A stretch of 64,000 bases of DNA from an uncultured bacterium (GTDB taxonomy: Bacteria > Chlamydiota > Chlamydiia > Chlamydiales > FEN-1388), in the NCBI GenBank assembly GCA_964487845.1, contig CAZASK010000002.1:47137-111136 (forward strand), given 5' to 3'. Positions 25,336-30,687 of this stretch are shown piece after piece. The notes beneath the pieces were generated by a model that made no database searches, had not been told where the DNA came from, and saw only the letters and a list, made by a program, of their open reading frames with translations. The position numbers and the translations under genes were made by a program. Within the stretch, counting starts at the first letter, position 1. Each line of letters begins with the position of its first letter.

Positions 25336-28300
25336 TTGATAAGAGTATATATGAATACAGATTTTCTCTCTTTTAGGTGTTCGCAATTTCTCTATCGCAT
25401 GGTCTATTCAACTCTCATTTTTATTTTACTTTCATTGTGTATATGCCATGGAGGATTAGAAGCTACATATCAACAAGTGTATCAAACGACTACTAATGGA
25501 GGGATTACCTTTACTGGAAATACACTTGGTCTGAACAAAACAAATAACCAAAATAATCCAGGGATAAGCGGATCTATCGGAGCCTTTATAACAACAAATA
25601 CAGGCCTTCAGGTAAATAGTTACCCTCCAGGGACTACTCTTAATTGGACGTTAAATAGGTCAACTGCAGTCTTAGATCTTCCTGTTGGAAGTACCATATT
25701 GCATGCAGAGTTGGTTTGGTCTGGTAGTTATGGCTTTGACTCTGCTATTTCAGGCTCTGTTTTAAATACACCTATCACCTTTATCACTCCAGACAGCGTC
25801 TCTCATACGATCACGCCTAATCCAAGCACTGCTCAGTCTCGAGTCAATTCTGGAAGTAATGGCTTTTATGTAAGAAGCGCTGATGTGACATCATTAGTGA
25901 CGACGGCTGGGACATATACAACTGGTGGGGTTCCTGCTACTGTTGAAGCTGATGAGAATAATTTAAATTGCGCTGGATGGACACTTGCTGTCGCATATGC
26001 GAATCCAAATATGCTCACAAGTAGTCTTACGCTCTTTGTGGGCTGTGAGGCCTCCGGAGCTGCTGCTGCTAGCGTCAACGGTATTCATGCTCCTGATAAT
26101 GGAACTTTTACAAGCCGGCTATTTGTAAGCTGTCTTGAAGGAGATGCTCAGATTGTTGGAGATCACTTTTTAGTCGGGGGAACCTCTTCTTTGAGCTTTC
26201 CAGCAGATGCTGTATCGGGAAGTAATAACCCAAGTAGTAACTTTTTTGCTTCTCAAATCAACTCCTTATTGCCCCTTACTACCGATGTACAAACTGGAAA
26301 ATTAGTGGCTACGGGCTCTTCAGTATTAGATACGCGCGGCAGCTTTGGTACTACCAACTCCAATGCAAGCGCAGGAACTGGAGTCTCTGGTGCTCGTCAG
26401 GGCTACGATATTACGAGTGTAGATCTCGGATCGAAGATCGTAAATGGTCAAACGACTGTGTATGCCCAAGGGACGACAACTGGAGATGTGTATACGATTA
26501 ACTGCCTAGGTCTTCAGCTTCAGGTGAGTGCTCCATTGATCGAGGCGACGAAAAGCGCTGATATTACAGTTGGGACTCTTGGTGATGTGATTACGTATAC
26601 AATGACATTTACAAATACAGGCGAAGCTACAGCCTCATCTCTTGTGTTTAAGGATGTTTTGCCCTCAGGATTAACCTATGTGAATGGGTCATTTACAGTA
26701 AATGGTGTACCTGTTGTAAATCCAAATCTGACATCAGGAGTCTCTTTAGGATCGCTTGCTGTCAATCAAACAATTACAGTTGTCTTTCAAGCGGAAATAA
26801 CCGCTGCGAATCCACCGGATGAATATATAAATGCGGCCACTATAGATTATAGCTTTGTTCCCTTTATAGGAGGAGATTCAATATCGTTACAGAGCATGAC
26901 GAATCCGGTTACTGTTGCCGCTTCTGGGATTCTACCTCCTGTGGCGCAGGACGATACTGGAACTACAACCGTGAATGTAGTCTTAAACGGTACAACAGTA
27001 TTAGTAAATGACACTGGAACTAGTTTGACCGTTACTTCATATGATCATACGACTACACAGTCCGGATCTGTAGTCATGCAGCCAGATGGGACCTATGTGT
27101 ACACGCCTCCAAGTGGGTTTTCTGGGCAAGATACATTTACCTATACTGTTACCGATGCTGTGAATCAAACCGATACAGCAACAGTGACGATTACAGTTCT
27201 GCCTCTTGCTCAAGCAGATAGTGCGATAGTAGCTGCTAATACAACACTTAATCAGGCTACAAGTGTTTTAAGTAATGATGCTGGGACTGGATTAACGGTC
27301 ACTTCCTATCAATCAACCTCTTCTGAGGGGGGCACTGTTGTTGTGCAATCGAATGGTACCTACGTCTACACGCCACCAAATGGATTTTCAGGTCAAGACA
27401 CATTTGCCTACACAGCGACTGACTCATTCGGCTCTACGACATCAACTATTGTTACTATTACAGTGCTCCCAGTAGCGCATAATGACACTGGTACTACGCC
27501 GAGCAATACTGTATTAAATGGCTCCACTGTCTTTACGAACGATGTAGGATCTGGATTGACGCTTGTCTCCTATGACCACACATCAACGCAAGGTGGTACG
27601 GTTACCATGAATATGCTGAACGGCACCTATGTCTATACCCCTCCAAATGGGTTTTCAGGACAAGATACGTTTACCTATACAGAACAGGATGAGTTTGGAT
27701 CACAAAGTACAGCTACTGTAACAATCACTGTATTACCAACAGCGGTGAATGATTCAGCTAGCACCACTACGAATGTTGTGTTACACCAAAATAGCAGTGT
27801 GCTAACAAATGACATTGGAACAGCTCTCGCCGTTACCTCATATCAAAACATTTCTACCCAAACAGGTACTGTTGTGATGCAGTCAAACGGCACCTATGTC
27901 TATACCCCTCCATTGAATTTTTCAGGGACAGACACCTTCCAATATACCGCTACCGATACATTTGGGTCGTCTACCTCCGCTACTGTGACAATTACTGTTC
28001 ATCCACTTGCTATTAATGACACAGCAATAACGTATGCAAATACAAGTCTTATAGGATCAAGTATTCTTGTGAATGATACTGGTAGCACGCTCACTGTGAC
28101 GAGTTTTCAAAATGTATCAGCACAAGGCGGTAATGTCGCTGTAAATACAAATGGAACCTATACCTATATGCCGCCTCCAGATTTTTCGGGTATCGATACG
28201 TTTCAGTACACCGATACCGACTCATCTGGGCAGACTACTTCAGCAACTGTTACCATTACAGTGCTTCCTGTTGCTAATAATGATTCGGGGAGCACATCTG

Positions 28301-30687: not shown

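Follow-up and report, generated by a model that had tools for sequence, protein, structure and literature searches.

A candidate repeat-fibre adhesin in an uncultured member of the Chlamydiales and the small outer membrane barrel gene that adjoins it

Introduction

Fibrillar adhesins with CLIPPER stalks (Protein Sci 2025, PMC12617251; structure 9IFR) combine a signal peptide, a tip domain, an immunoglobulin (Ig)-like stalk and a C-terminal sorting part, and their CLIPPER (DUF11) domains carry the Lys/Asp/Asn isopeptide triad defined in the same work. The protein that concerns us here, a candidate adhesin of 1783 aa, is encoded by an unbroken frame at positions 25336-30687 (plus strand) of a 64,000-nucleotide stretch, hereafter the window, of contig CAZASK010000002.1 from the genome of an uncultured bacterium of the Chlamydiales (assembly GCA_964487845.1). 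It resembles the CLIPPER fibrillar adhesins in all of these respects, and departs from them in having one CLIPPER domain only, a stalk made of Big_9 units, a tip foreign to Pfam, and a fibronectin type III (FN3)-like tail with an adjoining barrel gene in the place of a known sorting signal. The main new results are the recurrence of this tail-barrel cassette across the order and the uncatalogued domain that forms the head of the protein, rather than the number of its repeats.

A second point of comparison is provided by the tandem-95/Big_9 adhesins (BapA, LapF and LapA-type proteins; models NF012211 and NF045619), which share with the window protein acidic Ig- or cadherin-like repeats of about 90 aa that form a long rod. 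These proteins are exported by a type I secretion system (T1SS) through a C-terminal signal and without an N-terminal Sec peptide, whereas the window adhesin starts with a Sec peptide and ends with an FN3-like tail, its gene string being free of T1SS genes. Against NF045619 (BapA/Bap/LapF) the adhesin scores 202.8 for a cut-off of 180, in 10 stretches, the best of which covers model positions 407-457 of 458 only. We reject membership in that family, as this is a repeated match to a short part of the model, in a protein that has a signal peptide and an FN3-like C-terminus.

Two further systems associate a surface protein with a barrel of its own. In Flavobacterium johnsoniae, SprB is reportedly a cargo of the type IX secretion system (T9SS) with a type-B C-terminal domain (CTD), its cognate PorP/SprF-like barrel, SprF, being encoded downstream. 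The window locus has the same general layout, with a large surface protein, a C-terminal beta-sandwich, an outer membrane barrel gene next to it and, in relatives, varied passengers; it differs in its barrel, which is OMP_b-brl/OmpW-like and about 170 aa long. No T9SS CTD model is present among the NCBIfam or Pfam matches of the adhesin, and the Pfam matches of the barrel family comprise OMP_b-brl, OmpW, OmpA and Opacity, PorP_SprF not being among them. Genome searches with the T9SS models PF14349 and PF11751 gave no match, but their controls were equally silent; to our knowledge, no T9SS has been reported in chlamydiae. In Myxococcus xanthus, the surface receptor TraA works with a partner outer membrane protein, TraB. 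Here too a surface protein and a small OmpA-like barrel are encoded together, the barrel serving, or in the window being proposed to serve, to hold or present the protein. Here too the parts differ: TraA is fixed by a MYXO-CTERM lipid anchor, and TraB carries a peptidoglycan-binding domain of the OmpA C-terminal kind, features that the window pair does not have. These two systems, T9SS type-B CTD with PorP/SprF and TraA/TraB, are the closest functional analogues of the tail-barrel pair, built from unrelated parts.

The DUF11 domain leads to two other comparisons. OmcB, the 60-kDa Cys-rich adhesin of the outer-membrane complex of chlamydiae (COMC), is likewise an envelope protein made of DUF11 domains, with a basic motif that has been implicated in binding; it has no head, Big_9 stalk, FN3 tail or barrel partner, and it is heavily cross-linked via its Cys residues, in contrast to the Cys-free stalk of the window protein. 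The giant DUF11/DUF7507 proteins of Paenibacillus and Clostridia begin with the same head-DUF11 unit as the window adhesin, while lacking a signal peptide and an FN3 tail, having DUF11/DUF7507 stalks and, in some cases, a C-terminal DUF3794. PMC5749712 and PMC12357932 describe spore proteins with DUF11, and by analogy these Firmicutes giants are probably spore-surface proteins. Their lack of a signal peptide suggests an assembly on spores from the mother-cell side.

As far as we know, environmental chlamydiae are devoid of the set of Pmp and MOMP proteins known from the pathogenic Chlamydiaceae, and their attachment to hosts is poorly known. The adhesin family is of interest as a candidate attachment fibre, the tip being conserved and the stalk longer or shorter according to lineage.

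Architecture of the adhesin and its partner barrel

From N- to C-terminus, the adhesin is composed of a signal peptide, a head of 357 aa, one DUF11/CLIPPER domain, 13 Big_9/tandem-95 repeats and a basic FN3-like tail. An earlier note, drawn up from the letters of this DNA, had proposed just such an arrangement for a surface protein with an unassigned N-terminal domain, and every part of it is borne out: Pfam assigns DUF11 and the Big_9, Cadherin_5 and Cadherin_4 families, NCBIfam assigns tandem-95, the likeness of the tail to FN3 appears when a profile of tails is compared with the PDB, and the head remains unassigned. The note had also seen no T1SS feature, autotransporter barrel or LPXTG motif in the protein, and Pfam and NCBIfam searches, together with a reading of the sequence, agree. 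There is no match to PF03797 or Chlam_PMP in the adhesin at E<=0.01, which would have marked a type V autotransporter or Pmp, and its C-terminus, ...VPVRIEHD, lacks the transmembrane (TM) segment of a sortase substrate. The adhesin is a bona fide tandem-95/Big_9 and CLIPPER protein. It falls outside the BapA/LapF-type adhesins exported by T1SS, the autotransporters and the sortase substrates, and its Pfam and NCBIfam matches do not mark it as a T9SS cargo. A surface fibrillar adhesin is still the best reading of the protein.

The tail (30403-30684, plus strand; aa 1690-1783) has 94 residues, follows a PPP linker, and contains 18 Lys/Arg and 3 Cys. Taken alone it has no match in Pfam; a profile of nine tails retrieves from the PDB the FN3 domain of NagJ (E 6.9e-5) together with FN3 modules of fibronectin. 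It is conserved in all chlamydial members of the head family, and it is also the C-terminal module of many other chlamydial open reading frames (ORFs) whose passengers are unrelated to the adhesin (Kelch, PKD/propeller, TIG). Tail matches occur in 28 of 41 relatives, with up to 14 ORFs per genome, and when 300 genomes of the order are searched, 79 have a match at E<=1e-8; the genome of the window holds no further one besides the adhesin. An anchoring of the tail by Cys cross-links was rejected as a general explanation, the tails of two cassettes (G037 and G023 below) being without the two Cys.

Immediately downstream, the partner gene (30674-31651, plus strand; ATG at 30680) overlaps the stop codon of the adhesin. 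In its product a signal peptide is followed by a Cys-rich extension and then by a predicted 8-stranded barrel of about 170 aa ending in ...GIGFGVRF, the barrel domain proper (31127-31651, plus strand) being identified through the OMP_b-brl matches of its family and a profile match to AlkL. The relatives of this barrel are proteins of 180-215 aa, one of which is named 'outer membrane beta-barrel protein'. Eight of the nine aligned members match Pfam OMP_b-brl, PF13505 (best E 1.6e-7), with weaker matches to OmpW, OmpA and Opacity; the window's own barrel reaches 15.1 bits against PF13505, under the cut-off of 28.7. Compared with the PDB, the family profile finds the 8-stranded AlkL, of the OmpW family (E 0.006). 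As Gly, Tyr and Phe are the sole residues at its invariant columns, the barrel looks structural rather than catalytic, and an enzyme of the PagP or PagL kind is unlikely for the same reason.

The extension that precedes the barrel is peculiar to the window. About 150 aa long (30674-31150), it contains 17-aa Cys-containing repeats (WPPACETNLVAVERVNH and similar), with a tandem 51-bp repeat at 30902-31000 in the DNA, and is missing in all relatives examined (182-215 aa); because of it the tail and barrel profiles stand 470 nt apart, where the median distance is 78 nt. A second, more distant barrel paralogue is present in the same genome (G000:C6:21373-21750; E 3.6e-13 with the family profile, in a frame of 249 aa), without a neighbouring tail gene.

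Linkage of tail and barrel was counted by cross-referencing the 150 best tail matches with the 150 best barrel matches in a sample of 300 genomes of the order. Within these best matches, 43 tail genes in 37 genomes adjoin a barrel gene on the same strand. We estimate that chance would yield fewer than about two adjacencies among 150 barrels, given a few tail genes per ~1500-3000 genes. In 36 of the 43 pairs the tail comes first and the barrel second, and the two profiles end and begin a median of 78 nt apart, roughly the space that a signal peptide of the barrel would take up. The barrel family as a whole is present in 129 of the 300 genomes.

Reading of the ORFs confirmed overlaps of 4-20 nt in the cassettes, whose passengers are of several kinds. 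Proteins of the head type overlap the barrel gene by 4 nt in G034, by 8 nt in the metagenome locus L020 (where there is one Big_9), in G063 and in G215, whose protein is identical to that of Parachlamydia sp. AcF125, and by 20 nt in G094. The passenger combines PKD and a propeller in G037 and is a propeller in G104, both with an 8-nt overlap; in G023, where the passenger is a lactonase-like propeller, the barrel gene comes first and the overlap is of 4 nt. In G009 one barrel gene lies between those of two TIG proteins, and in G227 two Kelch proteins are encoded downstream of a barrel. The HK and GT2 genes of the window were considered as further members of the cassette and rejected, the gene that follows the barrel being different in G034 and GT2 being a core gene; the contig of L020 ends just past its barrel gene.

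For the anchor that the adhesin itself seems to be missing, a likely answer is its FN3-like tail, coupled genetically to a small outer membrane barrel throughout the order. Tail and dedicated barrel make up a genetically well-defined candidate route for anchoring, found in at least 37 of 300 chlamydial genomes and used for several kinds of surface protein. In the searchable literature, neither accession numbers nor a description of this adhesin family or of a tail-barrel cassette in chlamydiae came to light. As Parachlamydia (sp. AcF125) carries the cassette, its role is testable in a cultivable amoeba symbiont. In the taxonomy used here, G215, whose head-type protein recurs unaltered in Parachlamydia sp. 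AcF125, belongs to another family (f31) than the window (f1), the window organism being placed outside the family of Parachlamydia.

The tail is also found in paralogous arrays. In G022 (C2:367-391 kb, locus L025), G014 (C2:50-77 kb), G236 and G012, arrays of genes, up to 14 per genome, encode proteins that all end in the same FN3-like tail, and these genomes mostly lack the present barrel family, so that another receptor would take charge of the tail there.

The head domain and its family

The head (25465-26535, plus strand; aa 44-400) is an all-beta domain, N-terminal throughout its family. It follows the signal peptide region (25336-25464, plus strand; aa 1-43), which has a hydrophobic core and a predicted cleavage between ...GGLEA and TYQQ; all chlamydial relatives keep this junction in the form (L/I)(E/Q)(A/G) followed by (T/V/S)Y, that is, of the LEA/TY type. 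The start listed for the whole ORF, on the plus strand and of 1783 codons plus stop, is a TTG, and alternative in-frame ATGs lie at 25351 and 25399.

No Pfam model matches the head, even at E<=10, and neither a single-sequence nor a profile search of the PDB found a sequence match. AlphaFold2 models are confident, with a pLDDT of 79 and a pTM of 0.87 for the head alone, and of 84 and 0.86 for head plus DUF11. When the model of the head is compared with the PDB by Foldseek, its best match has an E value of 4.4e-4, with TM<=0.25, and only weak matches of double beta-sandwich or jelly-roll character are found; we do not accept this fold as an assignment. With the two-domain model, generic Ig matches predominate. 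A faint precomputed match of one relative (P0122) to DUF3344 (PF11824) failed to reproduce in a Pfam search. In the alignment of the head, 56 columns are invariant; Asp, Glu, Asn, Arg and Trp abound among them and Cys, His and Lys do not occur, which would fit a site for binding a ligand or a metal.

This is a large family. The head profile finds 3949 cluster representatives at E<=1e-3 among 1.84 billion proteins, and in all of the best 150 of these 3949 the head starts within residues 1-82. With some 3900 clusters at 50% identity, preceding DUF11/CLIPPER stalks in Firmicutes, chlamydiae and other phyla, the head defines a domain family that is uncatalogued, having neither a Pfam model nor a solved structure.

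The domain that follows is DUF11/CLIPPER (26536-26940, plus strand; aa 401-535). It matches PF01345 with 48.7 bits (cut-off 24.6) at aa 403-504, and its model is superposed by Foldseek on the CLIPPER crystal structure 9IFR with a probability of 1.00 and a TM of 0.70 normalised to 9IFR, the sequences also being alignable. Lys406, Asp440 and Asn499 stand at the positions of the triad, in columns of our alignment (A1) that are invariant or conserved in at least 90% of sequences, and the Lys and Asp align with the segment of 9IFR that holds the triad residues. On this comparison the domain retains the Lys-Asp-Asn isopeptide triad, and the bond itself is predicted.

Residues 40-530 of the adhesin match the N-termini of DUF11/DUF7507 proteins of 2200-2900 aa from Paenibacillus and Clostridia with 40-44% identity, the match extending over >90% of these residues. 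For the head-DUF11 unit, identity is 40-47% with the Firmicutes proteins and 50-72% with chlamydial ones. The Firmicutes homologues are devoid of a signal peptide, their heads beginning at residues 2-20, and the N-terminus of the mature adhesin lines up with residues 2-5 of these proteins. Members from outside the chlamydiae that do bear a signal peptide end in an LPRTGG motif followed by a TM segment, or in a TM segment followed by RRR. From the position of these anchors we take the C-terminus to be the cell-proximal end of the proteins of this family and the head to be their free end.

The earlier note regarded a large repeat adhesin as unusual for a chlamydial envelope. This needs correcting for the protein, which belongs to a chlamydial family; its stalk is the largest Big_9 array seen in that family. 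Its members, annotated 'DUF11 domain-containing protein', include proteins of Parachlamydia acanthamoebae (781 aa, WP_013924972), Parachlamydia sp. AcF125 (760 aa) and several Neochlamydia (641-654 aa), and many uncultured chlamydiae have one; of the 40 genomes most closely related to the window's own, 6 also have the head. Their common plan consists of a signal peptide, a head, one or two DUF11 domains, Big_9 units in variable number and the same tail. Reading of the sequences gives 0, 1 (P0205), 6 (G034 and P0289) and 13 (window) Big_9 units, and a count of motifs alone gives 3-4 in some relatives. The window protein thus has the most repeats seen in the family, while one relative of 1958 aa, with other domains, is longer overall.

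In a tree of heads, the chlamydial proteins form one clade (100/99 support), apart from the clade of Firmicutes, with two other sequences that bear signal peptides as neighbours. The closest head relative in protein searches is L021 (66% identity over the query), and the orthologue found by genome search in G034 is closer (72% over the head). In L021 (ENA contig, 8001-11839), the head gene and many of its neighbours are split into short ORFs, probably as a result of frameshift errors in a long-read assembly rather than because the gene is a pseudogene.

Proposed assembly of the fibre and competing explanations

These features may be combined into the following scheme, which we consider to have somewhat better than an even chance of being right. 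The adhesin would be exported by Sec, and the small 8-stranded barrel made from the overlapping downstream gene would be seated in the outer membrane, where the basic FN3-like tail would dock onto its co-translated partner. The 13 acidic Big_9/tandem-95 repeats would form a rod with an estimated length of 50-60 nm. Tandem-95 adhesin rods can be stiffened by Ca2+, and this may apply here. The isopeptide-locked DUF11/CLIPPER domain would cap the rod, and the all-beta head of 357 aa would be its distal tip, binding a ligand of the host or of the environment, probably on the surface of an amoeba host. The length of the stalk would be what evolution adjusts, relatives having 0, 1, 3, 4, 6 or 13 repeats. 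As for the crossing of the outer membrane, candidate routes are the type II secretion system (T2SS) encoded 8 kb downstream and a BAM-assisted co-assembly with the barrel.

Several facts weigh against this scheme. Many tail-bearing genomes are without a detectable barrel of this family, and in the window's own family of organisms the barrel is found in only 1 of 22 other genomes; among the 150 best barrel genes, 107 are not beside one of the 150 best tail genes. The head has no recognisable fold for binding or catalysis. An 8-stranded barrel is too narrow for the export of a folded protein of 190 kDa. The location of OmcB, another chlamydial DUF11 protein, is debated, and it may be partly periplasmic. 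The tail-bearing genomes that lack the barrel mean that it is not a universal receptor of the tail: to judge from gene content, it is a frequent dedicated partner of the tail and not its sole possible receptor.

The pair may be given a broader meaning, to which we would assign appreciable weight while rating it short of an even chance: tail and barrel would constitute an undescribed system of display, and perhaps of export, common to the order of chlamydiae and serving interchangeable passengers (head/Big_9 fibre, Kelch, PKD-propeller, TIG), analogous to the T9SS type-B CTD with PorP/SprF while made of unrelated parts. In a separate reading, the barrel would serve as anchor and also take part in export, the tail being recognised while the barrel is assembled and the passenger being threaded outward in the manner of a split autotransporter or with the assistance of BAM; this would be similar to T9SS type-B CTD cargo in its need of a cognate PorP/SprF barrel. 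The overlap of start and stop codons by 4-20 nt in the majority of cassettes, which suggests a 1:1 co-translation, the invariably C-terminal position of the tail, as in the CTDs of secretion systems, and the exchange of passengers all go in this direction. We nevertheless find such a route unlikely, in view of the narrowness of a barrel of about eight strands of the OmpW/OmpA/Opa class, too small for a pore, of the many tail genomes without this barrel family, and of the absence of a T9SS-type CTD from the NCBIfam matches of the adhesin.

It is about as unlikely that the adhesin stays in the periplasm as a structural component of the envelope, at the location proposed for OmcB, and is fastened to the barrel at its periplasmic turns. 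The DUF11 domain has the fold of OmcB, there are Cys residues in head and tail, and the protein itself encodes no outer membrane translocator. Yet 13 Ig-like repeats, with an estimated length of at least 50 nm, exceed the width of the periplasm, the stalk has no Cys for cross-linking within the COMC, and display outside the cell is indicated both by the passengers that sister cassettes carry (Kelch, PKD, TIG, propellers) and by the anchors of LPXTG type in homologues.

Less probable again is a release of the adhesin by the T2SS into the inclusion or the medium, as a soluble binding or effector protein whose proximity to the barrel gene would have nothing to do with anchoring. The adhesin has a Sec signal peptide, and GspD and GspE are encoded at 38481-42670, 8 kb downstream, outside the conserved cassette; but T2SS genes are part of the cassette neither in G034 nor in L020, and a linkage of tail and barrel that extends over the order, with translational overlap, is hard to explain without a physical relationship between the two. 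Docking of the tail on the barrel at the cell surface is the reading that we retain.

The repeat stalk

The stalk (26941-30402, plus strand; aa 536-1689) consists of 13 Big_9/tandem-95 repeats of 88-89 aa. Both Big_9 (PF17963; 605 bits, cut-off 23.6) and the NCBIfam tandem-95 model NF012211 (560 bits, cut-off 90) match it in 13 stretches each, and this substantiates the number and the tandem-95/cadherin-like class that had been proposed from the letters alone. Cadherin_5 and Cadherin_4 also match. The composition is acidic, with 81 Asp/Glu, 2 Lys/Arg and zero Cys.

The repeats contain 43 N-x-S/T sequons where shuffled sequences would have 23. The earlier note had seen about 3 sequons per repeat, had allowed that composition might account for them, and had called them notable given the GT2 gene of the same gene string (33463-34257, 2.8 kb downstream). 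An N-glycosylation of the repeats by this enzyme is unsupported, and we rate it very improbable. The sequons sit in motifs that were copied 13 times, and are therefore not independent events. GT2 is a single-copy core gene, present in 39 of 41 relatives at 47-60% identity, with or without the adhesin, and the GT2 and adhesin genes of G034 are on separate contigs. Neither STT3/PglB nor an HMW1C-type GT41 was found in the genome, which is 90% complete, while control queries did match. We know of no GT2 enzyme that acts as a protein N-glycosyltransferase.

Identity between repeats ranges from 50 to 80% in protein and from 52 to 83% in DNA. Paralogous units have a dN/dS of 0.12-0.26 for a dS of 0.5-2.2, which identifies them as old duplications maintained by purifying selection. 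Tandem Repeats Finder detects no array at the DNA level within the adhesin ORF. The youngest internal duplication relates R6-R7 (28270-28803) to R9-R10 (29071-29604), with an offset of 801 nt (overall span 28270-29604, plus strand); the two pairs of units are 83% and 75% identical in DNA, with dS of 0.47 and 1.0 and dN/dS of 0.26 and 0.16. In a tree made with the 6-repeat orthologue of G034, R5 groups with r5 (99/97 support) and R13 with r6 (93/94), and R1, R2, R3, R5 and R13 have positional counterparts there. R6, R9 and R11 form a cluster restricted to the window (98/94), and R7, R8, R10 and R12 have no clear counterpart. From this tree, the window array would have expanded by internal duplication in its own lineage.

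That a tandem array of 13 units might have been collapsed or expanded by the assembler is hardly credible, as no 31-mer is common to the repeats, whose longest shared exact stretch is 27 nt, and the units differ by 17-48% in DNA within a frame that is unbroken over 5.3 kb.

Neighbouring sequences

Upstream of the ORF, at 25244-25319 (plus strand), there are three overlapping sigma-70-like promoter matches, which are weak and whose number over the region is not above chance. A weak terminator-like hairpin at 31623-31644 (plus strand), at the end of the barrel gene, is consistent with a bicistron of adhesin and barrel.

In L020 (2462-4001 compared), the enolase gene lies immediately upstream of the adhesin gene, in divergent orientation. 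In the window (19087-25237), the two genes are separated by about 5 kb that contain genes for a peroxiredoxin-like protein, a metallo-beta-lactamase (MBL)-fold protein, a leucine-rich repeat (LRR) protein and a PPPDE-like protein, together with a tRNA-Arg (23747-23819, minus strand). To judge from this comparison, the content of the gap looks like an insertion into an older neighbourhood of enolase and adhesin.

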